A stretch of DNA of 38,873 bases, taken from an uncultured bacterium (lineage in GTDB: Bacteria > Chlamydiota > Chlamydiia > Chlamydiales > SM23-39). Below, piece by piece: positions 2,926-35,415 of the stretch. The notes under the pieces are model-generated. The model saw nothing but the letters and a program-made list of their open reading frames with translations. It had not been told where the DNA came from and did not search any database. A program made the translations under genes and the position numbers. Position 1 is the first letter of the stretch; each line of letters begins with the position of its first letter. The stretch covers positions 1 to 38,873 of the forward strand of contig CAYOMT010000001.1 of NCBI GenBank assembly GCA_964405125.1, read 5' to 3'.

Positions 2926-4806
2926 ATGAAGAAAATCAACTATCTATACTTCGGAATTTACTTTCTCCTTCTCGTACTCATGTCTGCAAGCGGCATTTTC
3001 GTTGTGAAGCCACTGGCAGAATCGAGGTTTTTCTTTTTCCTTTATAGTATGGGGCAAGCCGCTTTAGAAACCTGTTTTTTGATTGCGATTGGATATTTCC
3101 TCGAGCGCCTAACGAATCGAACCCTTTTTTTAGCCTATATCGGCGCCACGTTTTTTCTTTTCATTCTTCACGTACTTGATTTTCTCATGAATCGAATCCT
3201 CGATCTTTCTATCTGGGAAACAATCTCCTTTGTTCTCGATGAAACATTTGCAAATTTCCTCTTTCTTCTCGACGCTTCGGGAATCCCCACTTGGCTTTGG
3301 GTCATTCTCTTTACAACTCTCTTGTTACTCCCTTTTCTCGGGATTGCCCTCTATAAAATCACAGAAAAAATCACTCAAAAATATCCCCTCCCTCTTCCTA
3401 AGGAATCTCTTCCTCTCGCCATTTTTTGCATTCCCGTGGCTCTCATGTTTTGGGATTTTTCCGCTTCCCGCGTGATCCACCCCAATACATATACAGCCTT
3501 TCTCCAATCTCTTCCCTGGAAATTCACCCTGTTACAGCCGAAAAACGTCATTCTCGAAACCCCCTATCTACCCACCATATCCTACACAAAAAAAAGCCTT
3601 GAAAAGGCAACATCTGAAATCACCCTCTCTCAAAACCCCAATATTTACCTCTTTGTCATCGAAAGTTTCCGAGAAGATTTCATCACCCCGGAAGTGGCCC
3701 CTAATCTGTTTGCCTTCAAACAATTATGCGCTCCGATCGATCTCACTTTATCCAATGCAAATGCCTCGCACCTATCTTGGTTTTCGATTTTTCATTCCCA
3801 ATTCTCTCATAACTGGCATCTTTTGCAGCAAACCCACTGGAATATGGGGAGCCCCGCTCTCTATTTTTTAAAAAACTTAGGGTATCAAATCCATCTCTAT
3901 AGCTCTGCGCAGCTCGGGTATTACGGAATGGAAAAACTCCTTTTTGGAGAAAATAATTCTCTTCTCTCCTCCTACCAAAAATTCCATCACATCCCTCCTC
4001 TTTCCGCCGCAGAAACCGACGCAGAAGCTCTAAAAACGATGCAAAAGGATCTAAAAGAAAATCCAGCTATGCACAAGGGACAAATATTTCTTATGTTCTG
4101 GGATGCAACGCACTTCGATTATAGCTGGCCTAAAAATTGGGCTCCAAAATTTGTCCCCTTTGCAAGCGAACTGGCTTACTTCAAGGCCTTTTATTCACAA
4201 AAAAGGATCCATCAGATCAAAAATCGATATCGGAATGCAGTCCATTATGTCGATCATCTTTTTGGGGAGTTTATCCAAAATATCCCCAATAAAGAAGAAG
4301 CCATCATCATTGTCACGGGAGATCATGGAGAGGAATTCTTCGAGCACGGCCATCTATTCCATGGATCCCATCTCGTTCAAGAACAAACCAACATCCCGAT
4401 CTACATGAAATTTGGAGAAAAAATCCCAAAAGAAAAAAGAGTCCTGGCTTCGCAAATGGATATTTTTCCAAGTCTAATCGATTATCTCTCAGGAAAAACC
4501 CCCTCTTTCCTCCAGGGACAATCCATATTCCGTGAAACAAAATGGCCCTTCGCCGTGATCTCTCGCTTCAATGCCGGCAGAACCCCTTATGAATTGTGCA
4601 TTCACAATGGGAAAAATAAATGCATCGCGCAATTTATCGACCGAAAAAATATCCTTCAATCGAACGCTTTGCAAATCATGTCTTTACAAAGCTTCAACGA
4701 CAAAACCCTTCCGGAATCGCATAAAGATGTCCAAGCTTGGATAGATCGAGAATTCGGACCTGCTATTCAAGGTCTTTTTTCTCCAAATCGCGCAGAAAAT
4801 GAGTGA
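2926..4806 (+). CDS. Polytopic membrane protein with a C-terminal alkaline-phosphatase-superfamily (PF00884 sulfatase / EptA / LtaS-like) domain, paralog 1
   Basis: The first ~190 aa are strongly hydrophobic, with about 5-6 helices. Then come NIYLFVIESFRED (metal-binding Glu region), NANASHLSWFSIFHS (putative Ser/Thr nucleophile region, no CxPxR sulfatase motif), RYRNAVHYVD and TGDHGEEFFEHGHLFHG. Confidence 0.75.
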   Translation: MKKINYLYFGIYFLLLVLMSASGIFVVKPLAESRFFFFLYSMGQAALETCFLIAIGYFLERLTNRTLFLAYIGATFFLFILHVLDFLMNRILDLSIWETISFVLDETFANFLFLLDASGIPTWLWVILFTTLLLLPFLGIALYKITEKITQKYPLPLPKESLPLAIFCIPVALMFWDFSASRVIHPNTYTAFLQSLPWKFTLLQPKNVILETPYLPTISYTKKSLEKATSEITLSQNPNIYLFVIESFREDFITPEVAPNLFAFKQLCAPIDLTLSNANASHLSWFSIFHSQFSHNWHLLQQTHWNMGSPALYFLKNLGYQIHLYSSAQLGYYGMEKLLFGENNSLLSSYQKFHHIPPLSAAETDAEALKTMQKDLKENPAMHKGQIFLMFWDATHFDYSWPKNWAPKFVPFASELAYFKAFYSQKRIHQIKNRYRNAVHYVDHLFGEFIQNIPNKEEAIIIVTGDHGEEFFEHGHLFHGSHLVQEQTNIPIYMKFGEKIPKEKRVLASQMDIFPSLIDYLSGKTPSFLQGQSIFRETKWPFAVISRFNAGRTPYELCIHNGKNKCIAQFIDRKNILQSNALQIMSLQSFNDKTLPESHKDVQAWIDREFGPAIQGLFSPNRAENE

Positions 4807-6178
4807 TGGGACCTAACCCCACTTTCCGATCTAGCACATCTCCCTGGGCATCGACTAAAAGAGCTGTCGGCATGGATCGAATATTATATGTATCGCTCAA
4901 ACGCTGCAGCTTATCCACATTCACTTTCAAAAATTTCACCTTCCCGCTCAGTTTCAAAGCCGATTCCTCAAAATAGGGAGCAACTCTTTTGCAAGGACCG
5001 CACCAAGACGCATAAAAATCGATCACAATAGGCCCTTCGCTTTTTTCTAATTCCCTTTCAAACTGCTCAAAACTTCGAATCTCAACGACTTCTGCCGATG
5101 CCGCAAAAGATTTTTCTTTCTCCGGCTCTTTTTTAAAAGCAAGTCCGTTCATTCGATCCGATACATATTGCTGTACTTGAAGAGCCGCCTTCGCGCCATC
5201 TCCCGCAGCAGAAATTGCCTGCTTAAAAATAGGATCGACAATATCGCCGACGGCATAAATGCCTTCCACCGAAGTTTGCTGCCCTTTTTCTACGAGAATG
5301 TATCCTTCAGAGTCCATCTTCAATACATCTTTAAAAAGCTGGCTATTGGGCTTGGATCCAATGGCTAAAAAAAGGCCATCGAGAGAAAACATCTCCTTCT
5401 TTTTCCCATCCCTTTTCAGGATAACCGATTGCACATTATTTCCATCTCCCTTAATTTCAGCAACTTGCGTATTATACATAACCCGGACATTGGGTTTTGC
5501 AAGGAGCATGTCGACCCTCTTTTTTTCTCCGGCTCTCAAGTGGTCTTTACGGACAAAAACGACGACTTCTTTGGCGATATTGGATAAATAAAGAGCCTCG
5601 AGAACGGCTGCATCGCCGCCGCCGACAACACCCACCCGCATTCCCTTATACAAATTTCCATCGCAAATCGCGCAGTTGCTCACCCCTTTGCCCCAATAGC
5701 CCCGAGGCCCTGTTTCTCCGGGGATTCCCAAATAATTGGGCGAGGTTCCCATGGCAATCACACAAGTTTCCGCAAAGAAAGATCGAAGAGTCTCTTTTCC
5801 ATCCACGGAGCGCACTTGAATCACAAAGGGGCGCTTTGAAAAATCGACAGCCACCACTTCTTCTTGGCAAAATTGCGCTCCATTCTGGATGGCTTGCCGG
5901 CGCATTTTTTCAGTTAAAAAATGGCCTTCGATCTCCATTTCGCCGGGCCAATTTTGCACGCTATGAGACTGAGTGAGCAAGCCGCCGGGATTTTGCCCCT
6001 CAATCACAACGGGATGCAGCTCCGCTCTGCCGAGATATAAAGAGGCCGTTAAAGCGCCAATGCCCCCACCTAAAACAACTGCTGGATAAATAGGGTCTTC
6101 TTTTTTCTGGATAGAATAACCTTCTCCACAAAAAACACAAATGCATGCACAGAAAAAAAATTTTCGCAAAACAATCAT
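4763..6178 (-). CDS. trxB: Thioredoxin reductase fused to C-terminal thioredoxin, with an N-terminal Cys-rich hydrophobic segment
   Basis: FAD motif VVLGGGIGALTAS, redox CAICDG (aa 169-174), NAD(P)H motif VGVVGGGDAAVLEA and GDIVD. A linker at about aa 345-365 precedes a Trx fold with WCGPC (aa 392-396). The N-terminus is MIVLRKFFFCACICVFCGEGYS. No in-frame ATG or GTG lies between the start and the FAD motif; the only other start codon there is a TTG at codon 4, which still keeps the hydrophobic segment. Confidence 0.85.
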   Translation of the reverse strand: MIVLRKFFFCACICVFCGEGYSIQKKEDPIYPAVVLGGGIGALTASLYLGRAELHPVVIEGQNPGGLLTQSHSVQNWPGEMEIEGHFLTEKMRRQAIQNGAQFCQEEVVAVDFSKRPFVIQVRSVDGKETLRSFFAETCVIAMGTSPNYLGIPGETGPRGYWGKGVSNCAICDGNLYKGMRVGVVGGGDAAVLEALYLSNIAKEVVVFVRKDHLRAGEKKRVDMLLAKPNVRVMYNTQVAEIKGDGNNVQSVILKRDGKKKEMFSLDGLFLAIGSKPNSQLFKDVLKMDSEGYILVEKGQQTSVEGIYAVGDIVDPIFKQAISAAGDGAKAALQVQQYVSDRMNGLAFKKEPEKEKSFAASAEVVEIRSFEQFERELEKSEGPIVIDFYASWCGPCKRVAPYFEESALKLSGKVKFLKVNVDKLQRLSDTYNIRSMPTALLVDAQGDVLDRKVGLGPITHFLRDLEKKDLE

Positions 6179-6264
6179 TGGCGCCCCCTTTTTTTTTGAC
6201 TATATACCCAAGACAAAATTCTATACATATATTATATAGAAGATTGTTAGAGGGTGTCTACAAA

Positions 6265-8121
6265 GTGAAAAATTTCTTCTCCCAAAAAAGACGAGTGAAT
6301 TATCCCTATTTTGCTTTTCTATGGCTCTTCATTCTTACATTGAGCCTCATTCGCTTTCTTTCCCTTGATATTTCATTTTGGTTTTTCTTTTACTCTCTTT
6401 TTCAAGGGGTCTTTGAAATCGGCATTTTTACCCTGGCGGCCCACATTGTCAAAGCATCCATGCCCCGCTTTGTCTATTTCATTTTACTGACCCTCTTTTT
6501 TACATTGCTCTTGGTTCACTACACCAATTTCACAATGGTCCGATTGCTGGATGTTTCCCTTTCCTATCTTTTAAAATTCTTTGCAGGAGAAGGGATCTCC
6601 CACGTGATCTCTGTTTTCCAGGCAATCAACATGAACCAAAACATGATGATTTTCATCGGCATCACCATCTTATTGATTCCCATTTTTGGAATTGCTCTCT
6701 ACCAAATCACAAATTGGCTGGCTCAAAGAAAAAGCCTCTCTCTTTCCCTTTCCCAAATCGTTTACTCTCTTTTTGCTTGCGGAAGCTTCCTTCTCGCTTT
6801 TGAATGGATTGCGATTCCCTCCCTTTCGAATGCGAGTCATGTCAAATACCAAAAAACTCTTCCCCTTGGGACAACTCTATTCGATCCTTCCATCCCCGTT
6901 GTCGCTCTCTCGCATCCGATCCTTCCTCCCCTTTCTCAAGAAGAGGTCTTAAAACATTTTGAATCCCTCTCTTGCTCTTCTAAACCGAATATTTATCTTT
7001 TTGTCATCGAGACATTCCGCAAAGACTTTATCAATGAAGAAATTTCGCCCCATCTCGCCCATTTCGGCCATGAAAATATGGAGTTCCCTTTTTCTTTTGC
7101 AAACGCCAACTCGACGCAACATTCTTGGTTTGCTATTTTCCACTCTCTTTTTCCCTATCATTGGACAAACTCGAGAAATCATCCCGCTCAAGGAAGCATC
7201 CCTTTGCAGCTTCTCAAACAACTCGGCTATAAAATCCATGTTTATTCCTCGGCAGATTTGCGTTATTTCGATATGGATACAATGATCTTCGGCCCCGAAC
7301 GAATTCTAGCCGATCAAATCGTCGAACTCGCGCCCAATCGATCCATAGAATCGTGGGAAAAAGACGCTCTTGCCATGGGAGCTTTTGAAAAAGACATCTG
7401 TCAGGAAAAGGGGCGGGAAGGAAATCTATTTCTCTTCTTTTTTGATGCCACGCACTCTGAATATAGTTTTCCGGAAGAATTTTCCCATAAATTCACGCCG
7501 ATCATCAAACAAATCGACTATCTCACTTTAGACCCTAAAAATATTGAGCCGATCAAAAACAGATACCGCAATGCAGTGGCTTACATAGACTCTCTTTTCG
7601 AAAAATTTATCTCGACTCTCAAAAAAGAAGAACTCTACGAAACATCGATTATTGCGGTTACGGGAGACCACGGAGAAGAGTTTTTTGAGGAAGGGTCTTT
7701 ATTTCATGGAACGCACCTCAATTCAATCCAGACAAACGTGCCTATCTTTTTTAAATTCCAAAATACATCCCCGCCTGTCTATACAAATACCGCAACCCAC
7801 GTCGATATCTTTCCCTCCATACTCCATTTTCTCACTGAAAAACCCCTCGCAAACGTATTCGACGGCCAATCGATTTTCAAAGAAAATAGATGGCCCTATC
7901 GCCTAGCCATTTTACAAAATGGCGCTAAAACGCCCTCTGAATTCACGATTGAAAAAGAAAATTATAAACTGCACGCCCGATTCTCAAATCCAAAAAATTT
8001 ATACAAAGAAAAAGAGATTGAAATTATTTCTTTGACAACAACGCCTACCCAAGAAGCTCTTAACTCCGAGTCTATATCTAAAATCTTTGAATTCTTAAAT
8101 AATCCAGATAGACTTAATTAA
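6265..8121 (+). CDS. Polytopic membrane protein with a C-terminal PF00884 (EptA/LtaS/sulfatase-fold) domain, paralog 2
   Basis: Same architecture and motif series as 2926-4806: NIYLFVIETFRKD, ANANSTQHSWFAIFHS, RYRNAVAYID, TGDHGEEFFEEGSLFHG. The ORF-track start 6145 would overlap the divergent trxB start. I chose the in-frame GTG at 6265, with AGAGGG 10 nt upstream; the start remains uncertain. Confidence 0.75.
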   Translation: MKNFFSQKRRVNYPYFAFLWLFILTLSLIRFLSLDISFWFFFYSLFQGVFEIGIFTLAAHIVKASMPRFVYFILLTLFFTLLLVHYTNFTMVRLLDVSLSYLLKFFAGEGISHVISVFQAINMNQNMMIFIGITILLIPIFGIALYQITNWLAQRKSLSLSLSQIVYSLFACGSFLLAFEWIAIPSLSNASHVKYQKTLPLGTTLFDPSIPVVALSHPILPPLSQEEVLKHFESLSCSSKPNIYLFVIETFRKDFINEEISPHLAHFGHENMEFPFSFANANSTQHSWFAIFHSLFPYHWTNSRNHPAQGSIPLQLLKQLGYKIHVYSSADLRYFDMDTMIFGPERILADQIVELAPNRSIESWEKDALAMGAFEKDICQEKGREGNLFLFFFDATHSEYSFPEEFSHKFTPIIKQIDYLTLDPKNIEPIKNRYRNAVAYIDSLFEKFISTLKKEELYETSIIAVTGDHGEEFFEEGSLFHGTHLNSIQTNVPIFFKFQNTSPPVYTNTATHVDIFPSILHFLTEKPLANVFDGQSIFKENRWPYRLAILQNGAKTPSEFTIEKENYKLHARFSNPKNLYKEKEIEIISLTTTPTQEALNSESISKIFEFLNNPDRLN

Positions 8122-12105: not shown

Positions 12106-12705
12106 ATGGTTAAAAATTTCTTTTCAGCAGCTTTATCAACAGTTCTTATCGCGGGATCTTCTATCGCTGCAGAAAATGTCGTGACTGGCGTTGTGAACTT
12201 CACCACATGCATCACAGATTCTAAGCACGGGAAAAAAGAGCAAGAAAACTTCGAATCGCTGCGCAAGCAAATGTCTTCGATGATTGAGAATACAGAAACG
12301 CAGCTCAAAGAAATCTCTTCTAAATTTGAAGATACAGAGTATCTCGACAGCCTCTCTCCGAAAGCGGAAGAAGAGCTCAAAATTAAATTTCAAACTCTCC
12401 AAGAGGAATTGAATAGATACCAAAATCAATTCTATCAAGTCCTCAACCATGCCAACCATCAGATGGTGCAAAAGATTAGCAGCTCTATTTCTGTTGCCTC
12501 TAAGCAAGTGGCTGAAAAAAATCGGCTCGACTACGTGATCAATAAAGAGGCATGTTTTTACATCCGTCCGGATCTCGATGTGACAACACAAGTGATCTCT
12601 GAAATGGACAAAAAATATGATCTCGACGTGCAGTCCAAGAAAATCTCCGACAACAGCGAAATGGGTGAAACACAGCTCGACGAAATCCCCACTCGAGCAG
12701 GTTAA
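12106..12705 (+). CDS. ompH: OmpH/Skp-like periplasmic chaperone
   Basis: 199 aa with a signal peptide (ALSTVLIAGSSIAAE) and a K/E/Q-rich coiled-coil body. It has the canonical position between bamA and lpxD. AGGAG lies upstream of the ATG. Confidence 0.8.
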   Translation: MVKNFFSAALSTVLIAGSSIAAENVVTGVVNFTTCITDSKHGKKEQENFESLRKQMSSMIENTETQLKEISSKFEDTEYLDSLSPKAEEELKIKFQTLQEELNRYQNQFYQVLNHANHQMVQKISSSISVASKQVAEKNRLDYVINKEACFYIRPDLDVTTQVISEMDKKYDLDVQSKKISDNSEMGETQLDEIPTRAG

Positions 12706-13739
12706 TGCCTGATTATACTTTATCAGAATTGGCGGCAAGAACTGCCGCCACTTTAATAGGCAATCCAAACGCTGTCATCTCCGGTGTAGATACATTGGAT
12801 GAAGCGTCATCAGAAGATATTTCTTTCCTTGCAAACCCGAAATATTCCGAGGCGATGAAAAAATCTTCGGCGGGAGCCATTTGCATCGACCCGTCAACCT
12901 CTCGAATGGAAGACAAGAACTACCTTGTTTCAGAAAGTCCCTCGAGAACATTTCAAATGATTGTAGAGCTTTTGCTATCTACCTCATCGAAATCGGGATT
13001 TACAGGCATTCACCCGACAGCGGTGATCCATCCGAGTTCTACCATCCATCCAACAGCCCATATCGGTCCCTACGCCGTGATTGACAAGGACTGCAAAATT
13101 GGAGAAAACACAAAGATCTCCGCGCACGTATCGATCGGATACGGAGTAGAAATTGGGAGTGATTGCTTTCTCCACCCCTCTTGCATAGTGCGCGAAAAAT
13201 GCATCCTGAAAAACAGAGTGATCCTGCAGCCTGGCGCTGTGATTGGGTCCTGTGGATTTGGATATGTAATGGATCAAAAAGGGACGCACCAAAAACTCGA
13301 GCAGCTAGGGACAGTGATTTTAGAAGACGACGTAGAAATTGGGGCCAACACAACCATCGACAGGTCCCGTTTTAAAGCGACGATTGTCCGTAGAGGAAGC
13401 AAGATCGACAATCTCTGCCAAATTGCCCACAACGTCGAGATTGGCGAAGATAATGTGATCGCCGCGCAGACCGGAATTGCCGGATCTGCGAAAACAGGCA
13501 AACACGTCATGCTAGGCGGGCAAGTTGGGATCTTGGGCCATATTATTTTAGATGACAGAGTGAAGATTGCGACGCGCGGAGGCGCATCGAAGTCTTTGAA
13601 GGAAGGAGTGTACCGAGGCAGTCCGGCGATTCCCATCCAAGAATACAATCGGCAAGAAGTCCTTCTTCGCAAAATCGAAAGCTACGCCAAAAGAATCCAA
13701 GAGCTTGAAAAAAAAGTAAACCAGCTCTTGCCTCAGTAA
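12705..13739 (+). CDS. lpxD: UDP-3-O-acylglucosamine N-acyltransferase LpxD
   Basis: 344 aa. An N-terminal LpxD-type domain is followed by hexapeptide-repeat left-handed beta-helix (IHPTAVIHPSSTIHPTAHIGPYAVI; GEDNVIAAQTGIAGSAKTG) and a C-terminal helix. The start overlaps the ompH stop (TAATG). Confidence 0.92.
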   Translation: MPDYTLSELAARTAATLIGNPNAVISGVDTLDEASSEDISFLANPKYSEAMKKSSAGAICIDPSTSRMEDKNYLVSESPSRTFQMIVELLLSTSSKSGFTGIHPTAVIHPSSTIHPTAHIGPYAVIDKDCKIGENTKISAHVSIGYGVEIGSDCFLHPSCIVREKCILKNRVILQPGAVIGSCGFGYVMDQKGTHQKLEQLGTVILEDDVEIGANTTIDRSRFKATIVRRGSKIDNLCQIAHNVEIGEDNVIAAQTGIAGSAKTGKHVMLGGQVGILGHIILDDRVKIATRGGASKSLKEGVYRGSPAIPIQEYNRQEVLLRKIESYAKRIQELEKKVNQLLPQ

Positions 13740-13753
13740 TCATCGACGACTGA

Positions 13754-16114
13754 TCAGTTCAGCTGATGGATTTCCTGAATGCATCGCACATAGGTATCGA
13801 TCTGGGCGGGATCCAGTCCCAGCGTCAATCGGATCGTCGAACAATCTTCTGCAAAAAGAACTCCAAAATTAGGATGGTAGAAGCCAAAACTCCTCCGATA
13901 AAAAATCGGAAACCCTTCTTGCATCGATCGCAAATAAAGACACCCCCCGACAATCGCAGATGCCCGAATTTTATGGAACGGACCTGAGACTTTAATGTCT
14001 ATAAACGAAGGATCGACATCCTCTGCGACAGGAACAATCCGGTATCTCCTCTTTGCATCAAACAATTCTTTCGGAACTCTTCCGAGCAGCTCTCTTGTAT
14101 TTTGAAAAATCTGCTTTCGATACAAATCCAATTCCAGATAAGCGTTTTGAAAGCTAAGACAAAACCATTGGAGGCTTAAAGGATCTGTTCTCAAAGCCGG
14201 ATCTTCAAGCAAAGCATCGAAATGGGACCAGTAAGGGTTCTTAGCATGGATGGCAAAATAGGGAGCTCCGCTATAATTATCCATTCCAAAAAGATCAAAT
14301 TTTAACCCGCTCCGATAGCACACGACATTCAAAATCCCTTCTTGAATTTCCTCTTGAAACTCTTCGAGAAGATCTTTAATTCGCGAAGAATCAAGAAAAT
14401 CAATCGTCGCATCCAACGCAACTGTCAGCCTTTTTGTCTTTTGCTTGCCTAAAGATCTCCTAATATTCTCGCAAACCCTCTCCACTTGATATTCCAGATG
14501 CTCGGGATTATCTCGTCGCAAAACAGGGTTAAATTGCATGAGTAAAAGATCCGCCTCCTCCCAATCGAGATCTGTGGCCTCTTCCTCCGAACAAGCAAGT
14601 GTTGCTTGCTTAGCAAGATGGATACACTCAAAATAAGAATTCATCCCATAAATCACTCGGGGCGCTTTCCCAACTGTTTTCTTTGCCGCTTTAAAAATCC
14701 CGGATAATCCCGTCATTCCCGATGCAAAAAGACTATAAGAGCTCAAAGGCCTTAAAGATTCTGGAAAAGATAAAACATCCGCGTAAATTCTTGAAAAATC
14801 CTCAAAATCAAAGGGAGAAAAAATCTCCAAAAGAGGCAAAACATGCAGATATATTTGTTCGACAAGCGCTGCAATTTCAAAAAATGAACACGTCTCTTGA
14901 CTTTTTTTCAGTTTAGCAAGGCATTCGAGAATATTTTCCATCGACATTTGCGCGGCAAGCCGCCTGGTTGGGCATAAAATCTCTCCCATAAAATCGGGAA
15001 GAGAATAAAGAATAGAGAGCATCCCCTCGATCATCACGGAGACATCCTCTCTTTCTATATGATTTATTTCTCCCCACCGACGAATAGATTCTGCAAAAGC
15101 ATCGATTTTAAGATTGGGCAGTACACGAGATCCAATCTTCCGAAAATTTAAATCCTCCGGCAGCCGATCCAGCTCTACAAGACTTGCTGTAAACCCGCCT
15201 GTTGAAACCCAAGCAAGCAGCGCTGCATCCTCTTTTTTTAAACAGATTGCATCGTCCAAAGGCAAAATACGCACCCCTCCGATTCCATTTTGCTCCACTC
15301 GCTGAATACAAAGAAGACGCTCTAAAGGGATGTTGTTTTCTTTGCATTGTTTCCGAAGAGCCATTCGATGCATTTCCCACAACTCGAGCCACTCGGATGG
15401 ATCTAAGCTTCGGCTTGGGAAAAGTTCGGTTACATCGACAACTCGACGTTCCGGATCTATCTCAATATATTCGAAAAAGTTGCAAGGCCGCGTTAAAATC
15501 AGAGGATAGGAAGAAGGATGCGGCAACACCTTTTTCCAGGCAGACATCCGATTCTCATAGACCTTCGAAAAATGGGTGAATGGATCTCTTGCGTAACTAT
15601 TTCTTGTGCTAGGGGAGACTTGGACATGAACCCCGAAACAAGGAGCCATCAGATTCACTTCAGAAGAAAAAAAACCATTGGCTTTTGCAAGCCACCTCTT
15701 TTCTAAAAAGGAAAGAAAAGCCGCCTGATCTTCTGTCTCTTTCGGAATCTGAGAAAGACGAAATCGATTCTCATCCCACGAATGGTGGGTCTTGGGGATC
15801 CATCCCCCCTCACAAGATCGAACCCAAGAAGAAGGAGCCTCCATCATCTGCTGGAAAACAATTTGAGAAGAAGAAAAACAAAGTCCGCTTAAAAATCGAC
15901 AATCCTTCAAATGGGCTTCATCCCATCCAATCAAAGAGCCCATGTGGGCCAGGAAAGACCCCATTCCAAGCGCTACACCTAAGCCGAAATATACAATCCG
16001 ATCCACCATCGAATGGAATATATTCACAAGATCTATCCGATCCCTCCAGATCTCCCCATAAGATGTCTTAAAGTGAAGGGCAAGAAAGAAGGAACCTAAA
16101 AAACCACAGGCCAA
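13754..16114 (-). CDS. Large orphan protein (786 aa): N-terminal hydrophobic segments, an unknown central region, and a C-terminal domain with a Cys/Met-metabolism PLP-enzyme-like motif series
   Basis: Long uninterrupted ORF. The track start is a TTG without an obvious SD, so the real start may be an internal ATG (aa 36, 51 or 58). Hydrophobic stretches are ACGFLGSFFLAL and IVYFGLGVALGMGSFLAHMGSLIGW. C-terminal motifs are listed under findings. The product call is inference. Confidence 0.6.
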   Translation of the reverse strand: MACGFLGSFFLALHFKTSYGEIWRDRIDLVNIFHSMVDRIVYFGLGVALGMGSFLAHMGSLIGWDEAHLKDCRFLSGLCFSSSQIVFQQMMEAPSSWVRSCEGGWIPKTHHSWDENRFRLSQIPKETEDQAAFLSFLEKRWLAKANGFFSSEVNLMAPCFGVHVQVSPSTRNSYARDPFTHFSKVYENRMSAWKKVLPHPSSYPLILTRPCNFFEYIEIDPERRVVDVTELFPSRSLDPSEWLELWEMHRMALRKQCKENNIPLERLLCIQRVEQNGIGGVRILPLDDAICLKKEDAALLAWVSTGGFTASLVELDRLPEDLNFRKIGSRVLPNLKIDAFAESIRRWGEINHIEREDVSVMIEGMLSILYSLPDFMGEILCPTRRLAAQMSMENILECLAKLKKSQETCSFFEIAALVEQIYLHVLPLLEIFSPFDFEDFSRIYADVLSFPESLRPLSSYSLFASGMTGLSGIFKAAKKTVGKAPRVIYGMNSYFECIHLAKQATLACSEEEATDLDWEEADLLLMQFNPVLRRDNPEHLEYQVERVCENIRRSLGKQKTKRLTVALDATIDFLDSSRIKDLLEEFQEEIQEGILNVVCYRSGLKFDLFGMDNYSGAPYFAIHAKNPYWSHFDALLEDPALRTDPLSLQWFCLSFQNAYLELDLYRKQIFQNTRELLGRVPKELFDAKRRYRIVPVAEDVDPSFIDIKVSGPFHKIRASAIVGGCLYLRSMQEGFPIFYRRSFGFYHPNFGVLFAEDCSTIRLTLGLDPAQIDTYVRCIQEIHQLN

Positions 16115-16140
16115 ACCAAGGATTCGCTTGATGGATATAC

Positions 16141-17073
16141 CTATTTTGTTCGCGCCTTTGTTGGAGTGCCAAAATGAAACATCGGGTTATCCGGATCTAA
16201 GCGCTTTGTATGGTAATAGGCCGCTTTATGTTCTCCTTCCCTCAACCGATTGTGAGTGAAAAACATCGCTCTTCTCGAAGAAGAACTCCGATTGGGCTCG
16301 GAATAATGGGGCACATAGGAATTGAAAAACACCACATCGCCTGGCTCGGCTTCAATCGGGATCCACGTAATTTTCTCCGACAATTCCGGTTGAATCGATC
16401 CATGAGCGCTCCCTCCTACGACATAAGGAAGGACGGCGGATCCCTTTTCGAGCAATTCAGCATCTACATCCTCGGCAAATGTTTCTTTCCAATTTTTCGC
16501 AATCTGAAGACACCCATTTTCTATCGTAGCAGTATCAATGCAAACCATGGCAGTGATATGTTCGCGAGGCCCAAAAAATTCAAAGGCAGGAAAATCTTGG
16601 TGCGGAGGAAAGGCTCCTCCCCCAGGCCATTTAAAATTGATTTTATCTTTGAAAAGAACATAAGGCTCCCCCAAAAAAGAACTGAGGTAAGTTGTCAAAG
16701 TTCCATAGACAAAATGATCCAAATCGGGATAACAAGCCAATAAATCTTCTGCTCGGCATACCTTCAAAGGATCTTTCGCTTCGGGAACCACAATCAAAGC
16801 CCCGGGCAAGCTCTGTGCAAACTCCTGCAGAGAAATCCCCGTTGTTTTGGAAAGAGAAAGCAAATGCAAAGAAGCTTCGTCGATAGCTTCAGACCAAGCC
16901 CTGAGGAGCATCACCTGCTCCGGAGAATAAAATCCTCGGACCCATAAGTATCCGTCCTTTTCAAAAAGAGCCTTCTGCGATTCCCAATGCGTCTGAGTTT
17001 GTTTCGGAGGAGGAAAATCTGCAAAAACAACCTGAACCACAAGAGAAAACACTAAAATTAAAACATGTTTCAT
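16141..17073 (-). CDS. PhyH-family Fe(II)/2-oxoglutarate-dependent dioxygenase with an N-terminal Sec-type signal peptide
   Basis: MKHVLILVFSLVVQVVFA|D signal, FEKDGYLWVRGFYSPEQV, WPGGGAFPPHQDFPAF (HxD), TATIENGCLQIA, EPGDVVFFNSYVPHYSEPNRSSSSRRAMFF (distal His and Arg). The ATG overlaps the upstream stop (ATGA). GGGAGA is a plausible SD. Confidence 0.85.
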   Translation of the reverse strand: MKHVLILVFSLVVQVVFADFPPPKQTQTHWESQKALFEKDGYLWVRGFYSPEQVMLLRAWSEAIDEASLHLLSLSKTTGISLQEFAQSLPGALIVVPEAKDPLKVCRAEDLLACYPDLDHFVYGTLTTYLSSFLGEPYVLFKDKINFKWPGGGAFPPHQDFPAFEFFGPREHITAMVCIDTATIENGCLQIAKNWKETFAEDVDAELLEKGSAVLPYVVGGSAHGSIQPELSEKITWIPIEAEPGDVVFFNSYVPHYSEPNRSSSSRRAMFFTHNRLREGEHKAAYYHTKRLDPDNPMFHFGTPTKARTK

Positions 17074-17570
17074 CGTTTAAAATCTCCCTGATTGTATCGA
17101 GTAATAATCCTCTGGATAATATCGGTCGAAGAAATGCCCGGTGTATATGGAACCGTTCGAAATAAACCCAATTTTAACGCCACTCCATACTGATCTTCCA
17201 AAAGATCCTCTTTGAAATCATCGCCATGGACGATGTAATCAATTCCAAGCTCTTCCACCATCTCTTCCGTGAGTCTCAAAGGCGGAGCGATCACCACCTG
17301 ATCGACATATTTACATGCAGCAATGACCTTCGCTCTCTCTTCTAAACTCATCACAGGAATTCTTTTGTATCCTTCTACGACATCATCCGCAAGAACGCCC
17401 ACGATCAAATAATTGCCAAAACTTTTCGCTTTTTTTAAAAACTCTACATGGCCTGCATGAAATAAATCTCCCACAATATCCACGTAAACGCAAACACGCT
17501 CTTCCGCGCCATCAAAACGGGCAAATAAAGAAACAAGAAAACAAAAGAAAAACCAATGGAATTTTTTCAT
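17070..17570 (-). CDS. Cytidylyltransferase-family protein (TagD / CCT / ECT-like, HxGH class) with an N-terminal hydrophobic segment
   Basis: VYVDIVGDLFHAGHVEFLKKAK (HxGH), GNYLIVGVLADD, MSLEERAKVIAACKYVDQVV, YIVHGDD, RTVPYTPGISSTDIIQRI (RTxGISTSDI motif). The N-terminus is MKKFHWFFFCFLVSLFARF. AAGAGG SD lies upstream of ATG 17568-17570. Confidence 0.85.
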   Translation of the reverse strand: MKKFHWFFFCFLVSLFARFDGAEERVCVYVDIVGDLFHAGHVEFLKKAKSFGNYLIVGVLADDVVEGYKRIPVMSLEERAKVIAACKYVDQVVIAPPLRLTEEMVEELGIDYIVHGDDFKEDLLEDQYGVALKLGLFRTVPYTPGISSTDIIQRIITRYNQGDFKR

Positions 17571-17630
17571 ACGACAGAGCCTCTTAAAAAAAATATAGAT
17601 AAGAAAGCTACTCTGAGTGGCTATTTTTGG

Positions 17631-21443
<3,813 letters not shown>

Positions 21444-28315: not shown

Positions 28316-30238
28316 CTATTTTGTCTTATTTAATCGAAGAGGGCTAAAAAGTCGTCCTCCGCCCTCGAAACTATAATGAAACCACTCCAAAAAATTCAAA
28401 CGAAGTCCATGTACGACTCCGCCCATCAAACAGATCAAAATGTTGATCGAGTGTCCGAGCAAAATCAATAAAACGGTGATAAATATCCCCGGGTCAACTC
28501 CCAATGCATCATTGAACGTATGCGCCATGACCATGCTCCCCAAAGCCAGAGCATAAAGGCGCAGATAAGAAAGAATATCGGCAAAAATCTGCACCGAGTG
28601 CAAAAGCTCCTGAAAAGCGCCCCACTTTTCCCGGATCAATGCCGCGATAAAAGCCAAGGAGACTCCCCCAATAATGAGCCACGCGCCCCAAAAATAGGCT
28701 TCTATCTTCGGAATCCAACCCATAAAATTGACGAGCACGGTCGCATGAATGATCGAAGGAAAATAAAGATACCCCCCGATAATAAAGCACACCCAGCCCA
28801 AGCCCGACTCTCTTCTTTTCAAATACCGCAAAAGAGAAAGGCTGATGTGGATGATCCCAATTAAAAAAGAAAATTCGAGAAGGATATTGTCTGAAAACTC
28901 TTCAAAGACAGGATACGTTTTCTTATCCGAAATCATCTGCGTTGCATCCAAAAGCAAATCTTCGCCGCTTTGTGCAGAAGACACCGCTGGATAGTCTTTG
29001 AGAATCTCTTGATATACATCGTCCTTCATCGCGAAATGGTAATCTGCCTTTTTCTCTACGAGAAACCCGAGGAGCGAATATTTTTCAATCGGATGATTGG
29101 GAGCAAATCCGATCCCAAAATAGGATGCCGTCAAAACGCCCCACAAAATCGAGCAAGTGGACAGAATCACGCTCAGTTTGACCATTCTTTTTTTCACGCC
29201 TTGAAGGCTCGGAAATTTCCTCCGAATCCAAAGCGAGATGCAAAGGAAAATCAGCCCATATCCGGCATCGGCTATAATCATCGAAAAAAAGAGGGCAAAA
29301 AAGACGAGGACCCACATCGAAGGGTCTTTATCCTTGTGCGATGGCGTGTCAAAAATATGAAGAATATCTTCGCCGATTTTTGCCAAGCCTGTATTTTCTA
29401 AATGAGTCGGCACAATATCTTTTTTCTCAATCGCAATTTTCTCCGCTTCCACATTGAGTCCGCTGAGCAAGCCTGCAAGAGAAGATTCCCTCGTCTTCGG
29501 CACCCACGCTTCTATGGCAAATAATCCATTGTTCAAACTAAGAACTGCATTGTGCTTAGCTAAACGGAGATGGTATTCATTCAAATCCTCGACAAGACCC
29601 GACTGGAGTTTGGGAAGATAATTGGAAAAAGTGCGGATATCGCTTTCCATTTTCGCGATCTCTTCGCGCAAAACTTGCAAGCGCTCTCGCAATACTCCGA
29701 CCGGACGATCGATCGTGATCTCGATCATTTTGGGGTATTGCTTCCTTTCCTCGTGAATGGCAACGAAATAATCCAAATCATATTCCGTTCCCACATGAAT
29801 GAGCTCAGGCGGCAGCGACATTTCAGAGGCCAAATCGCTTTTCATACAAAAAAATTGGAATACTTTTTTTGTCTCATTTTCCAATTGATTGAGATCCTCT
29901 CTCGAAAAATCTCCAAATGCAGAAATGCGGGAGATCTCCGCAATGAGAACTCTCTCTTCTTCAAAAAGGACTTCCTCCTCAGCTTTCATAGAAACGATCT
30001 TCTCGGCAATTTTTTCTATAGAAAGATCCGTTGAAGGAGCTTCTTGAGGATGCGTTGGGTAATGTTTCGCAATTTTAATCGCCGTAAGGAATGTTCTTGC
30101 GCTCTGGGGAAGCTCTAAAACTCTTTTTCGAGAAGAGCCGATAAACTCTAAAAACCCAGCTCTTTGCGCCAAAGAGAAAAACAAATCCATCTCTTTCCGA
30201 TTGCCAAAAATAAGATACTTTTCAACATCGACAATCAT
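28316..30238 (-). CDS. atpI: V-type ATPase subunit I (a)
   Basis: 640 aa with an N-terminal soluble coiled-coil half and a C-terminal multi-TM half. The latter contains the a-subunit Arg motif ILSYLRLYALALG. The start overlaps the atpD stop (ATGA). Confidence 0.9.
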   Translation of the reverse strand: MIVDVEKYLIFGNRKEMDLFFSLAQRAGFLEFIGSSRKRVLELPQSARTFLTAIKIAKHYPTHPQEAPSTDLSIEKIAEKIVSMKAEEEVLFEEERVLIAEISRISAFGDFSREDLNQLENETKKVFQFFCMKSDLASEMSLPPELIHVGTEYDLDYFVAIHEERKQYPKMIEITIDRPVGVLRERLQVLREEIAKMESDIRTFSNYLPKLQSGLVEDLNEYHLRLAKHNAVLSLNNGLFAIEAWVPKTRESSLAGLLSGLNVEAEKIAIEKKDIVPTHLENTGLAKIGEDILHIFDTPSHKDKDPSMWVLVFFALFFSMIIADAGYGLIFLCISLWIRRKFPSLQGVKKRMVKLSVILSTCSILWGVLTASYFGIGFAPNHPIEKYSLLGFLVEKKADYHFAMKDDVYQEILKDYPAVSSAQSGEDLLLDATQMISDKKTYPVFEEFSDNILLEFSFLIGIIHISLSLLRYLKRRESGLGWVCFIIGGYLYFPSIIHATVLVNFMGWIPKIEAYFWGAWLIIGGVSLAFIAALIREKWGAFQELLHSVQIFADILSYLRLYALALGSMVMAHTFNDALGVDPGIFITVLLILLGHSINILICLMGGVVHGLRLNFLEWFHYSFEGGGRLFSPLRLNKTK

Positions 30239-30843
30239 CGGTTTGCCTTTTTTAGAGCGATTTTTTTCTTTGCGACCTTTGCTTGCGCGACAAGAGAAAG
30301 CTGCTGATCGCTTAAAAAGATCCGAATTTTTTTAATGTTTTCCAAGGAACGGGGAATCAAAATCTTCTCAAATAAATTCACCCGGATGGATACGGATCTA
30401 AGCTCTTTTTCCAAAGCTCTTTTCTTTTCCTCTCCAATGCTCACCTTTTCACGGATCGTCGCAAATTCCCTTAGAATTTCAGTCGCCTGATCCGTCCATG
30501 CGGGAGTATCAAAAAGAGAGTAATCTGCATCGCGAAAGACAATGCTATCAAAAATCGGAATCTCGACGCCCGCGATGTTTTCGTAGCGTTTTTTTACATG
30601 CAAAACATCTGCGTAAATCGTCAAATTCACCGTCACTTTCTCTAAAAGAAAAGAAGCGAACTCCTCTACTTGATGCCGAACGAGCCTCATTTCCTCCGTA
30701 AGCCGAGAAATCTCCAATTGCGCAAGGGAGACCTCGAATTGGAGCATGGCTTTTTTTAATTGCAATGTCGGAAGATACCGCTGAAATTGAGAAAGGCGCG
30801 TCTGCTGATTGCGAAGTTCATTTTTTGTCAGCTTCAGCGCCAT
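30235..30843 (-). CDS. atpD: V-type ATPase subunit D
   Basis: 202 aa. MALKLTKNELRNQQTRLSQFQRYLPTLQLKK resembles the N-terminus typical of V/A-type D subunits. It is a long coiled coil positioned between B and I. Confidence 0.88.
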   Translation of the reverse strand: MALKLTKNELRNQQTRLSQFQRYLPTLQLKKAMLQFEVSLAQLEISRLTEEMRLVRHQVEEFASFLLEKVTVNLTIYADVLHVKKRYENIAGVEIPIFDSIVFRDADYSLFDTPAWTDQATEILREFATIREKVSIGEEKKRALEKELRSVSIRVNLFEKILIPRSLENIKKIRIFLSDQQLSLVAQAKVAKKKIALKKANR

Positions 30844-30846
30844 CCG

Positions 30847-34668: not shown

Positions 34669-34676
34669 AAAACGTC

Positions 34677-35303: not shown

Positions 35304-35415
35304 TGACACCTACATATTTTCTCCAGATTTTACTAGATATCTAACTTTTTGTCGTTGCTATTTTTTTACGAATTTTTCTAGCAAATAATTAAAGAAAAGT
35401 TATGATAACAATTTC

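Follow-up and report, generated by a model that had tools for sequence, protein, structure and literature searches.

Chlamydial cytidylyltransferase and PhyH dioxygenase genes as a possible exported phosphonate-tailoring pair, with a divergent PLP-type protein as neighbour

We suggest, tentatively, that three tightly packed minus-strand genes between trpS and lpxD of an uncultured chlamydia form a composite locus. Two of them, encoding a cytidylyltransferase and a PhyH dioxygenase, would be an exported phosphonate-tailoring pair. The third encodes an independent Chlamydiota-specific PLP-type protein, which would be a neighbour here by descent. Judging from its relatives, the pair would most likely provide, outside the cytoplasm, a (hydroxy)aminoethylphosphonate-type head group activated with CMP. 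An earlier note on this DNA had proposed a phospho-alcohol-derived head group, which comes close to the phosphonate-type reading that the evidence suggests.

The window, that is, the whole stretch of 38,873 nucleotides that was analysed, was re-read and all coordinates were reproduced: the three co-directional ORFs, the ATGA overlap, the 26-nt gap and the distance of 14 nt between the end of lpxD and the convergent end of the large ORF (Table 1). An identical 4-nt overlap is seen in the gene start and end coordinates of L166 and of an ENA contig. Each gene has hundreds of conserved homologues, meaning that all three ORFs are real genes. The group had been described as bounded on both sides. 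On one side, lpxD is the convergent last gene of a recR-bamA-ompH-lpxD block. On the other, trpS is co-directional, lies only 60 nt upstream and in L165 shares 8 nt with the cytidylyltransferase gene; hence trpS is no transcriptional boundary. The hairpin in the intervening region passed a terminator scan in its plus-strand version only.

Table 1. Features of the locus (positions in the window)
Feature	Position	Strand	Remarks
lpxD	12705..13739	+	Pfam LpxD + Hexapep; convergent, downstream of the trio
Large-protein gene	13754..16114	-	786 aa, TTG start; alternative start ATA at 16138
PLP-fold domain	13757..14767	-	~aa 450-786; key residues SGMT465-468, N529-P530, D568, S602/K605, R762
Codon of K605, candidate Schiff-base lysine	14300..14302	-	in 'YRSGLKFDLFGMDN'; invariant in alignment A1
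Gap, PhyH stop to TTG start of large gene	16115..16140	-	26 nt
PhyH dioxygenase gene	16141..17073	-	310 aa, ATG start
Predicted Sec signal peptide, PhyH protein	17020..17073	-	aa 1-18, MKHVLILVFSLVVQVVFA followed by D; heuristic
ATGA stop/start overlap, cytidylyltransferase/PhyH genes	17070..17073	-	reads '...cgATGAaa...'
Cytidylyltransferase gene	17070..17570	-	166 aa, ATG start
HxGH nucleotide-binding motif HAGH (H38-H41)	17448..17459	-	from sequence
Predicted Sec signal peptide, cytidylyltransferase	17520..17570	-	aa 1-17, MKKFHWFFFCFLVSLFA followed by R; heuristic
trpS-cytidylyltransferase intergenic region	17571..17630	-	imperfect hairpin (17606-17622), then T-rich tract
trpS	17631..18644	-	Pfam tRNA-synt_1b 2.3e-59; co-directional, upstream

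By homology, the 166-aa protein is an ECT/CCT-type HxGH nucleotidyltransferase domain behind a signal-peptide-like N-terminus. The Pfam scan agrees with the family named in the earlier note (CTP_transf_like, PF01467, 7e-20, 72 bits, cut-off 21). The best PDB sequence match is human ethanolamine-phosphate cytidylyltransferase (3elb, 1.6e-43); further matches are rat CCT (8e-24) and the CyTase domain of Fom1 (5x3d, 5e-18). There are 374 homologues at E<=1e-10. In the 118 of the 120 best matches that were aligned, the mature part is highly conserved from 'VYVDxVGDLFHxGH' onward, with the 'FH+GH' pattern at >=90%. The alignment to the PDB matches also reveals differences from CCT. The Trp of its 'APW', which we take to be the choline cation-pi contact, is Leu in the window protein. 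The Arg of 'RTEGISTS' is Tyr, and this counts against our main reading.

Might the protein instead be an ordinary envelope nucleotidyltransferase for heptose-1-P (as HldE domain II) or for glycerol- or ribitol-phosphate, standing by an unrelated, non-phosphonate PhyH protein with which it shares no chemistry? NCBIfam does report rfaE_dom_II (1.5e-21) and g3p_cytidyltrns (1.9e-16), but both scores are far below the cut-offs, and ECT, CCT and Fom1 score 68-87 bits in pairwise comparison versus 47 for TagD and 39 for an LPS-core protein. In L163 and L164 the gene lies, without PhyH, beside Glyco_transf_9 (GT9), a kinase-like gene and an IspD+adh_short fusion, and some two thirds of the PhyH loci in chlamydiae have no cytidylyltransferase gene next to them. 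Set against this are the recurrence of the pair and the polar residues of the dioxygenase, both described below, and we consider such a chance association improbable.

As far as its relatives tell, the 310-aa protein belongs to PhyH and, within it, to the PhnY* branch of phosphonate alpha-hydroxylases, which are Fe(II)/2-oxoglutarate dioxygenases. Here too the family call made before is borne out (Pfam PhyH, 1.2e-25). The NCBIfam model NF052437 (methylphosphonate hydroxylase) gives 4.6e-41 and 141 bits, far below its 500-bit equivalog cut-off, which counts against our main reading; homologues in proven phosphonate contexts reach 102-115 bits. H158, D160, H256 and R267 are invariant in the homologue alignment. 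Of 57 positions conserved in phosphonate-cluster homologues, 46 are conserved in chlamydiae as well, and the common positions include many K, R, D, E and N residues beyond the iron triad. Outside chlamydiae, where the homologues are 36-43% identical, 19 of 35 informative loci are phosphonate-type neighbourhoods, either biosynthetic, with PEP_mutase, TPP decarboxylase, Aminotran_5, NTP_transferase and CDP-OH_P_transf, or catabolic, with an HD (PhnZ-like) gene.

The latter gene brings to mind phosphonate catabolism, in which a PhnY*/PhnZ-like oxidative cleavage of the C-P bond would provide phosphorus. The chlamydial dioxygenases are equally similar to both kinds of homologue (mean identity 0.36 to the biosynthetic group and 0.37 to the catabolic, PhnZ-adjacent one, the two groups being 0.39 identical to each other), and some JGI records name homologues '2-aminoethylphosphonate dioxygenase'. 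However, no PhnZ-type HD gene lies beside any chlamydial copy. The HD protein of L080/L162 is encoded 6 kb away, carries HD_assoc_2 and has 409 aa. Moreover, a cytidylyltransferase has no role in the C-P cleavage route. A catabolic function is thus very improbable.

The hydrophobic N-termini noticed earlier on all three products are present and conserved. K or R precedes an uncharged run in 97% of cytidylyltransferase, 90% of PhyH and 70% of large-protein homologues, and the median run (16, 15 and 15.5 residues, respectively) has the length of a cleavable signal peptide. Among 120 cytidylyltransferase homologues, a small residue and then acidic residues follow the run. In the window protein an h-region of ~14 residues is followed by a cleavable-looking SLFA before R, so that this N-terminus is probably a cleavable signal peptide, and the enzyme was probably wrongly called anchored. 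Non-chlamydial PhyH homologues start without a signal segment. If these heuristics (K/R plus uncharged run) are correct, both the cytidylyltransferase and the dioxygenase carry Sec signal peptides, and their place of work would be the periplasm, the inclusion lumen or the host, in line with the extracytoplasmic action proposed before. A CTP-dependent enzyme with an export signal is unusual.

One possibility is that these are host-directed effectors, a secreted ECT-like enzyme and a dioxygenase that rewire Kennedy-pathway or phosphonolipid head groups of the host in its cytosol or in the inclusion lumen. Nearly all chlamydial homologues of both enzymes have signal peptides and free-living ones have none; the cytidylyltransferase is nearest to eukaryotic ECT and CCT; CTP, 2OG and Fe are abundant in host cytosol; and the window has no transferase gene. 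Nevertheless, a Sec signal alone leads only as far as the periplasm, and LicD and LPS-type glycosyltransferase neighbours suggest a bacterial acceptor. We regard effectors as unlikely.

The cytidylyltransferase and PhyH genes are a recurrent chlamydial gene pair. Of 23 informative loci from chlamydial metagenomes, 7 have them side by side; they also adjoin in L078, L079, L161, L162, L165, L166, L167 and one ENA contig. The adjacent genes can be co-directional or divergent, and their recurrence in both orientations is far above the chance expectation of ~1%. For 36 of the 120 best PhyH clusters the longest contig equals in size one of a cytidylyltransferase cluster; 13 of these contigs are <=6.4 kb. 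The pair is syntenic with trpS in 7 loci. LicD adjoins it in one relative and lies ~5 kb away in another (L161, L166); there is none in the window.

The situation with the third gene is different. Across 77 species-level genomes that encode the large family, a cytidylyltransferase gene never occurs within 10 kb of it, PhyH alone does in two, on the opposite strand, and 75 have neither partner there. Most PhyH and cytidylyltransferase loci do not contain the large gene, and L166 keeps the order trpS-cytidylyltransferase-PhyH...lpxD without it. Only the window's lineage has the trio (the window, L078, L079, L161 and one ENA contig). This survey does not support the trio as one conserved module, so that the single pathway proposed in the earlier note finds partial support at most. 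The arrangement of the trio between trpS and lpxD looks like synteny by inheritance. Still, those five contigs keep its order while the large proteins have drifted apart to about 42% identity (L079, L161); this persistence and the tight packing could mean that the third gene is functionally linked to the pair.

What is the large protein? It has no match in Pfam, NCBIfam or PDB sequences. With 42 close homologues and 681 representative clusters, it is a separate, fast-evolving, Chlamydiota-specific family, a very divergent PLP enzyme. One database record has the protein start at M36 (751 aa, P0001). The in-frame codons before the TTG read ISIKRILG, which resembles MSIKRTLS, the N-terminus of 70%-identical P0002; for this reason the true start may be the ATA at 16138-16136, in which case the gap after PhyH is probably coding. 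The AlphaFold (AF2) model (pLDDT 86.6, pTM 0.87) starts with a hydrophobic N-terminus, continues with an N-domain (~aa 95-325) and a helical linker, and ends in a PLP-like domain of fold type I. Foldseek aligns it to PLP enzymes (Asp beta-decarboxylase, SphA, Plu4, HisC, AAT, CGL, MGL) with probability 1.0, E about 1e-6 and a target TM-score of 0.4-0.55. Across 29 sequences the key residues vary little or not at all, and their order along the strands and helices of the model is that of aspartate aminotransferase. K605, mapped by inference rather than by superposition, recurs within 'SGQKFDM' in P0324 and P0381, two distant fusion proteins. The model suggests a class-I-aminotransferase-like domain, a plausible catalyst that probably acts on an alpha-amino acid. 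The fold of the "PLP-like orphan" was therefore recognized correctly before, but not its Cys/Met subfamily, since the motifs are more those of class I aminotransferases.

Such an enzyme could make or convert an amine substrate that the dioxygenase hydroxylates and the cytidylyltransferase activates, in one three-enzyme pathway. Its step might be a transamination of phosphonoacetaldehyde, a conversion of HAEP in the manner of PbfA, or the decarboxylation of phosphonoalanine or phosphoserine, which would give AEP or phosphoethanolamine. PLP enzymes for HAEP and AEP have been described, namely PbfA, PhnW and PalB (PMC8154272), and 16 of 35 non-chlamydial loci have a class I/II aminotransferase near the PhnY*-type gene. 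In L080/L162 a free-standing pentapeptide+C26 protein is encoded two genes from the pair, and Ca. Protochlamydia has these two domains in fusion with the core of the large family. The co-directional packing, in which the genes overlap by 4 nt or lie no more than 26 nt apart, and the order kept in five contigs would also agree. Yet we find this pathway unlikely in view of the 75 genomes and of L166 mentioned above. Furthermore, the large gene forms tandem paralogues and its neighbours vary between genomes, some family members have no signal peptide and are fused to peptidases, and the PLP domain has no profile similarity to the aminotransferases of phosphonate clusters.

We return to the proposed phosphonate-tailoring pair. 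What the analysis demonstrates is the structure of the genes, the families to which they belong, the fold of the large protein, the conservation and the neighbourhood counts. In the scheme that we infer, with its substrate, order of steps, compartment, phosphonate source and acceptor, the PhyH enzyme would hydroxylate C-1 of 2-aminoethylphosphonate (AEP), or of a very similar small phosphonate, to give 1-hydroxy-AEP. The ECT-like enzyme would join the amine-bearing phosphonate (or phosphoethanolamine) to CMP, and a LicD-type transferase encoded elsewhere would then transfer the activated head group onto a glycan or lipid of the envelope. As an energy parasite importing nucleotides from its host, the bacterium could have CTP, 2-oxoglutarate and Fe(II) in its periplasm. 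Neither 1.74 Mb of chlamydial loci nor the window contains Ppm, Ppd, AEPT or PhnZ, and no PEP mutase was found near chlamydial PhyH copies, so it is homology alone that ties the pair to phosphonates. PepM in chlamydiae has been reported from only two sponge MAGs (PMC9666466). Given so few reports, and with neither PEP mutase nor phosphonopyruvate decarboxylase nor AEP transaminase beside the pair, the phosphonate would be supplied by the eukaryotic host. Acanthamoeba polysaccharide was the first source of isolated R-HAEP (PMC8154272).

The earlier note knew of no described system of this kind. However, the tailoring of phosphonate head groups is known to follow just this logic, a PhnY*-type dioxygenase with a cytidylyltransferase, with or without LicD or a CDP-alcohol transferase (PMC8942020, PMC6697681). 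Its known parts include LicD-like genes and cytidylyltransferases of PF01467 (PMC6697681), and clusters of a 2OG oxygenase, a cytidylyltransferase and a CDP-alcohol transferase are predicted to make 1-hydroxy-AEP lipids (PMC8942020). The chlamydial pair would be a variation on this logic, and it hints that environmental chlamydiae process a phosphonate head group derived from their hosts.

Judged from the many conserved homologues that each of them has, all three minus-strand ORFs between trpS and lpxD are real genes, encoding a cytidylyltransferase (CT), a PhyH dioxygenase and a large PLP-like protein of 786 residues. Their layout is exactly as an earlier note had described it, from the positions of the ORFs to the ATGA overlap of the CT and PhyH genes, the 26 nt between the PhyH gene and the large gene, and the 14 nt from the end of lpxD to the convergent end of the latter. 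The interpretation offered with these observations, that the trio is a module encoding a single tailoring pathway, stands only in part: it is the pair of CT and PhyH genes that recurs in relatives, and the third gene has a history of its own.

Coordinates of the genes and sites discussed, in the window and on contigs of relatives (L numbers)
Feature	Sequence	Positions	Strand	Remarks
CT ORF	window	17070-17570	-	166 aa
PhyH dioxygenase ORF	window	16141-17073	-	310 aa
Large ORF	window	13754-16114	-	786 aa, TTG start
In-frame codons 5' of the TTG	window	16115-16141	-	ISIKRILG
Plausible ATA start of the large gene	window	16138-16136	-	
Imperfect hairpin, then T-rich tract	window	17606-17622		inside the trpS-CT spacer
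Sulfatase-domain protein	window	2926-4806	+	626 aa
Sulfatase-domain protein	window	6145-8121	+	658 aa
Fused thioredoxin reductase-thioredoxin	window	4763-6178		
V-type ATPase operon	window	28316-35309	-	subunits I, D, B, A, DUF2764 protein, E
LicD gene	L161	4368-5591	+	directly upstream of the pair
LicD gene	L166	584-1693	-	5 kb from the pair
Cluster with CT and GT9 genes	L163/L164	8001-11364		PhyH absent
Pentapeptide+C26 protein	L080	5563-7674	+	703 aa
Pentapeptide+C26 protein	L162	10200-12311	-	703 aa
Genes inserted between large gene and lpxD	L078	10278-12852		GNAT acetyltransferase, two small ORFs, HTH protein, Fic protein

On one side the trio is flanked by the recR-bamA-ompH-lpxD block. 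On the other, trpS is co-directional and lies 60 nt upstream of the CT gene, followed by a divergent Ser/Thr kinase and then by HtrA, ValRS and an S9 peptidase. Base composition over the trio region is not unusual. Promoter-like sites at the locus are no commoner than in shuffled controls, and a terminator scan gave nothing convincing between the trio genes. The hairpin in the trpS-CT spacer may act as a weak terminator or attenuator; at the related locus L165, trpS and the CT gene overlap and there is no spacer. The database gene call for the large gene starts at M36. The codons in frame upstream of its TTG align with the N-terminus (MSIKRTLS) of P0002, a homologue 70% identical to the window protein, which makes initiation at an ATA plausible and suggests either an ATA start codon or a recent change from ATG to ATA. 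In L078, the closest relative, several genes are inserted next to lpxD, and the HTH and Fic genes among them look like a toxin-antitoxin-type pair. Further away in the window we noted a V-type ATPase operon and a gene for a fused thioredoxin reductase-thioredoxin.

Gene neighbourhoods do not bear out the trio as one module. Among 77 species-level Chlamydiota genomes with the 786-aa family (Rhabdochlamydiaceae, Simkaniaceae, Parachlamydiales and unclassified MAGs), none has a CT gene within 10 kb of the large gene, and a PhyH gene is near it only in L018 and L056, 3-5 kb off and on the other strand. What lies next to the large gene varies between genomes, tandem paralogues are frequent, and no partner emerged from a search across the 77 genomes, where the commonest neighbour cluster is an MFS-like membrane protein (14 loci). 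The trio itself was found only where the pair sits between trpS and lpxD, and within this syntenic group L166 has a different gene at the large gene's place. To our mind the trio is a case of synteny that a single lineage has inherited. A single pathway of three enzymes, the reading that the tight packing in the window had suggested, is in our opinion unlikely.

The CT and PhyH genes, for their part, are adjacent and co-directional in the window, L078, L079, L081, L091, L161, L165, L166 and one ENA contig, and adjacent and divergent in L080/L085/L162, L098, L100, L102 and L167; 36 of the 120 best PhyH clusters match a CT cluster in contig size. About two thirds of the informative chlamydial PhyH loci have no CT gene within 10 kb. 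In L163/L164 a signal-peptide CT keeps company with GT9 (Glyco_transf_9), a kinase-like gene and a fusion of IspD with a short-chain dehydrogenase that resembles a CDP-ribitol synthase. Loci of these kinds are what one would expect if the CT were an ordinary sugar- or alcohol-phosphate nucleotidyltransferase and PhyH unrelated to it; beside the adjacency of the two genes in both orientations, this seems to us quite improbable. In L080/L162 a gene for a LysE-family exporter follows the CT gene after a gap of 3 nt.

The CT consists of one PF01467 domain (72 bits against a Pfam gathering cut-off of 21), whose HxGH motif reads HAGH (residues 38-41) and is kept across 118 homologues. Its best solved relative is human ethanolamine-phosphate cytidylyltransferase (ECT, 3elb; 1.6e-43 over both ECT domains), followed among PDB sequences by CCT (8e-24) and by the phosphonate-specific CyTase domain of Fom1 (5x3d, 5e-18), and similarity to all of these is well above that to TagD and an LPS-core enzyme. 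The segment 'YTPGISSTD' aligns to 'RTQGVSTTD' of ECT, with a conserved Tyr in place of the Arg of CCT 'RTEGISTS' and a conserved 'FRT' four residues upstream. At the Trp of CCT 'APW', which we take to be the choline-binding (cation-pi) residue of that enzyme, the CT has a Leu ('APPL', at least 90% conserved), and on this ground we judge that it is not a CCT. In the alignment of 118 among the 120 best homologues the mature protein is highly conserved from 'VYVDxVGDLFHxGH' on. The first 17-30 residues of the 120 are variable in sequence and constant in architecture, with K/R leading, then some 16 uncharged positions, one small residue and finally acidic ones. Such an N-terminus reads as a predicted cleavable Sec signal peptide rather than the membrane anchor that had been proposed.

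In the PhyH protein the iron triad (H158, D160, H256) and the 2OG-binding R267 are invariant, both across 26 chlamydial sequences and in 19 homologues from phosphonate contexts. A predicted signal peptide, with a linker of variable length behind it, is present in nearly all members from chlamydiae. A weak match to 'chlorinating enzyme' was set aside, as the carboxylate ligand D160, at odds with a halogenase, is present. The sole strong curated match is to NCBIfam NF052437 (the Gimesia methylphosphonate hydroxylase PhnY*, 4.6e-41), and its 141 bits are far below the equivalog cut-off of 500; by this measure the protein is not an equivalog of GmPhnY*. The model is a narrow one, since homologues from PhnZ and PEP mutase (Ppm) contexts score even lower on it (102-115 bits).

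A metagenome scan with PhyH returned two groups, one chlamydia-like with at least 46% identity and one from other bacteria with 36-43%. The neighbours in the former are housekeeping genes or CT. Those in the latter, when clustered and scanned against Pfam, form two sets. The first comprises PEP mutase, a TPP-dependent decarboxylase, Aminotran_5, Aminotran_1_2, NTP_transferase and CDP-alcohol phosphatidyltransferase, and this is the 'CDP-OH' phosphonolipid architecture, whose predicted product is the 1-hydroxy derivative (HAEP) of 2-aminoethylphosphonate (AEP) (PMC8942020). In the second set an HD (PhnZ-like) protein comes together with GntR and HAD genes, the arrangement of the catabolic PhnY*/PhnZ route (PMC8154272). 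Phosphonate marker genes are near the PhyH homologue in 19 of 35 informative non-chlamydial loci versus 0 of 23 chlamydial ones; conserved neighbours of chlamydial PhyH besides CT are housekeeping genes only (cytochrome oxidase subunits, a PhoH-like gene). Identity of the chlamydial clade to the homologues with the biosynthetic set of neighbours is 0.36 and to those with the catabolic set 0.37, and these two sets of homologues are 0.39 identical to each other. At 46 of the 57 positions that are at least 90% conserved in the phosphonate-context homologues, at least 90% of the chlamydial sequences have the same residue. On the NF052437 match, the neighbours of the homologues, the equal closeness to both sets of homologues and the kept positions, we assign the protein to the PhnY* family, and do so with good confidence.

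In tblastn searches Ppm, phosphonopyruvate decarboxylase (Ppd), AEP transaminase (AEPT), PhnZ, PntC and a CDP-OH transferase were found neither in the window nor in 1.74 Mb of chlamydial loci, where a few weak Aminotran matches proved unrelated. Catabolism of the PhnY*/PhnZ type would use a dioxygenase of just this family, and would need the PhnZ that these loci lack; we consider it highly improbable. Genes that could supply the head group (for Ppm/Ppd/AEPT, a choline kinase or a transporter) are absent from the window and all chlamydial loci examined, and the window has no phosphotransferase of the LicD or CDP-alcohol type by tblastn or Pfam. LicD proteins are a family of CDP-head-group phosphotransferases. 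Among the loci searched by tblastn only L161 had a LicD gene, the product of which matches the model of the Mycoplasma cholinephosphotransferase Mf1 (7e-12); L166, outside that set, has another. LicD-like genes are known to accompany AEP clusters (PMC6697681). The window also encodes two proteins with an N-terminal region of ~275 aa and a C-terminal Sulfatase domain (PF00884). They are weakly like phosphoethanolamine transferases (EptA, CptA), YejM and LtaS (~37 bits). Their genes are 6-11 kb away from the pair, and a role in head-group transfer in the periplasm is possible.

Our preferred reading, which we hold tentatively and at slightly less than even confidence, is that outside the cytoplasm the two enzymes produce an amino-phosphonate head group in activated form, for LicD-type transfer to the envelope; substrate, compartment and acceptor are all things that we infer. 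The dioxygenase would hydroxylate C-1 of AEP or of a close analogue, the ECT-like CT would form the CMP conjugate, and a LicD-type transferase encoded elsewhere would hand the head group to an envelope acceptor. CTP, 2OG and Fe(II) would presumably be available in the periplasm of a nucleotide-importing parasite. No genes for C-P bond formation are found with the pair, and reports of PepM in chlamydiae are limited to two MAGs (PMC9666466); the phosphonate would therefore have to come from the host. Acanthamoeba polysaccharide is a known source of both AEP and R-HAEP (PMC8154272). In the literature we found no paper linking chlamydiae with AEP, PhnY* or this CT. A conserved exported pair lacking a C-P bond-forming enzyme would imply that a host metabolite is used for envelope decoration or host manipulation, and also that CTP-dependent chemistry takes place in the periplasm of an energy parasite. 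Export would suit host-directed effectors too; with LicD genes near the pair in two relatives, we regard effectors as distinctly unlikely.

Amoebae, ciliates and many invertebrates, in which environmental chlamydiae live, are rich in AEP and HAEP head groups. A more specific form of our preferred reading is that these bacteria salvage host AEP: an exported PhnY*-type hydroxylase and an ECT-type CT, supplied with host CTP, would yield CMP-(1-hydroxy-)AEP, from which LicD would decorate the envelope, all without PEP mutase. In this full form we consider the proposal unlikely. If it is correct, it would be the first phosphonate metabolism in Chlamydiota beyond two PEP-mutase clusters in sponge MAGs, the only ones described to our knowledge. 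It would, besides, be the first case of nucleotide activation outside the cytoplasm, and would tie these bacteria at the molecular level to hosts rich in AEP and HAEP, Acanthamoeba and ciliates among them.

The 786-aa protein has no match in Pfam, NCBIfam or PDB, whether searched as a single sequence or as a 29-sequence profile; matches to LPD15 (0.007) and eIF3j (0.66) were judged to be chance. An AlphaFold model built with the 29-sequence alignment reached pLDDT 86.6 and pTM 0.87, and with it Foldseek found 192 PDB matches at E<=1e-3. The best 50 listed are all fold-type I PLP enzymes, the matches including Asp beta-decarboxylase, SphA, Plu4, HisC, AAT, CGL, MGL and CGS (probability 1.0, 9-14% identity, target TM-score 0.38-0.55). 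The earlier guess of a PLP-like orphan thus agrees with the fold of the model, and its Cys/Met subfamily receives no specific support. In the alignment K605, S602 and D568 are invariant and SGMT465-468 nearly so; N529-P530 and R762 too belong to the invariant or nearly invariant positions. Mapped to aspartate aminotransferase by motif order along predicted strands and helices, and not by superposition, SGMT465-468 would correspond to S107-G-T, N529-P530 to N194, D568 to D222, S602-x-x-K605 to S255 and K258, and R762 in 'IRLTLG' to R386; S107, N194, D222, S255, K258 and R386 are presumably the key residues of that enzyme. K605, the candidate Schiff-base Lys, and the N-terminus of the putative phosphate-binding helix are at their expected places in this order; for the Lys that place is behind the strand next after the one ending in Asp. 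With the key residues placed as in aspartate aminotransferase, the PLP domain of the model seems fit for catalysis and probably binds an alpha-carboxylate. Homology of the C-terminal half to phosphonate-cluster aminotransferases was rejected (hhalign against Aminotran_1_2 and Aminotran_5, probability <1%). The N-domain (aa 95-324) modelled alone had pLDDT 67.6 and no PDB match in Foldseek at E<0.1. An Inc protein is unlikely, the first hydrophobic segment starting at residue ~3 and the second being only moderately hydrophobic.

A profile search of 1.84 billion representatives gave 681 clusters of this family at 50% identity. Its distant members (P0324, which is WP_068467984.1 of Ca. Protochlamydia, P0350, P0354, P0363, P0381 and P0362; 1,060-1,500 aa) are fused to pentapeptide repeats and Peptidase_C26, as is WP_068467984.1, or to Peptidase_M15_4, and these fused domains may indicate amino-acid, gamma-glutamyl or D-Ala-peptide chemistry. 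P0324 and P0381, the two inspected, have no signal peptide. A free-standing pentapeptide+C26 protein, which matches the N-terminal half of P0324 at 33% identity (3e-74), is encoded in L080/L162 two genes from the divergent CT-PhyH pair. Another homologue, P0003, carries two similar insertions of ~50 aa ('FVNFGGPQNG...NSQNL'; alignment columns ~325-375 and ~710-765), which may derive from a small insertion element that is repeated and read in frame. The family is a large, Chlamydiota-only set of cryptic, putative PLP enzymes, with variable targeting and peptidase fusions, that sequence annotation has missed.

We know other systems with which these proteins can be compared. FrbH of FR-900098 biosynthesis, presumably a cytidylyltransferase fused to a PLP decarboxylase, is the nearest known analogue of the proposed trio, and sets a precedent for one aminophosphonate undergoing both CMP activation and PLP chemistry. 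Its role in cytidylyltransfer is documented (PMC6697681); it differs from the trio in belonging to another nucleotidyltransferase family (PF12804) and in being a fused cytoplasmic protein inside a PEP-mutase cluster. ECT/Pcyt2 (3elb) and CCT (3hl4) of the Kennedy pathway, the best sequence matches of the CT, have HxGH in common with it and align to it over the C-terminal 'G-I/V-S-T/S-T-D' motif, whereas the chlamydial enzyme is one catalytic domain of ~145 aa after a signal peptide. That PF01467 enzymes cytidylylate phosphonates is known, the CyTase domain of Fom1 and PhpF being proof that the fold can do so (PDB 5x3d; PMC6697681). Fom1 is cytoplasmic and fused to PEP mutase, and the CT is somewhat less similar to it than to ECT and CCT.

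The PhyH protein agrees with the dioxygenases of oxidative PhnY*/PhnZ AEP degradation and with GmPhnY* in family, iron triad and 2OG arginine, and in most of the conserved polar residues (NF052437; PMC8154272). Unlike in that route, it has no PhnZ partner, bears a signal peptide, is paired with a CT and scores below the cut-off. Phosphonyl-tailoring (Pnt) and 'CDP-OH' phosphonolipid clusters combine Ppm-Ppd-AEPT with a 2OG oxygenase, the cytidylyltransferase PntC and LicD or a CDP-alcohol transferase (PMC6697681, PMC8942020). The pair resembles them in joining a PhnY*-family dioxygenase, of a family that occurs inside such clusters at 36-43% identity, to a CTP-dependent activating enzyme. It differs in that the chlamydial loci have no PEP mutase, decarboxylase or transaminase, the activating enzyme is of the HxGH type (PF01467, ECT-like) and not LicC/PntC (NTP_transferase), both enzymes have signal peptides, and the bacterium is obligate intracellular.

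The large protein has its fold in common with class I aminotransferases, Asp beta-decarboxylase, Plu4/SphA and Cys/Met lyases, phosphonate examples being PbfA, PhnW and PalB, and likewise the order of phosphate-binding helix, N-P motif, Asp, Ser-x-x-Lys and C-terminal Arg. Unlike these enzymes it shows no detectable sequence similarity, has a hydrophobic N-terminus and ~450 extra N-terminal residues of no recognisable fold, and is confined to Chlamydiota. If our preferred reading is right, the logic is that of known phosphonyl tailoring and the setting would be unexpected: exported enzymes of obligate intracellular bacteria, working without PEP mutase, and adjoining them an unannotated, Chlamydiota-specific family of predicted PLP-fold proteins.
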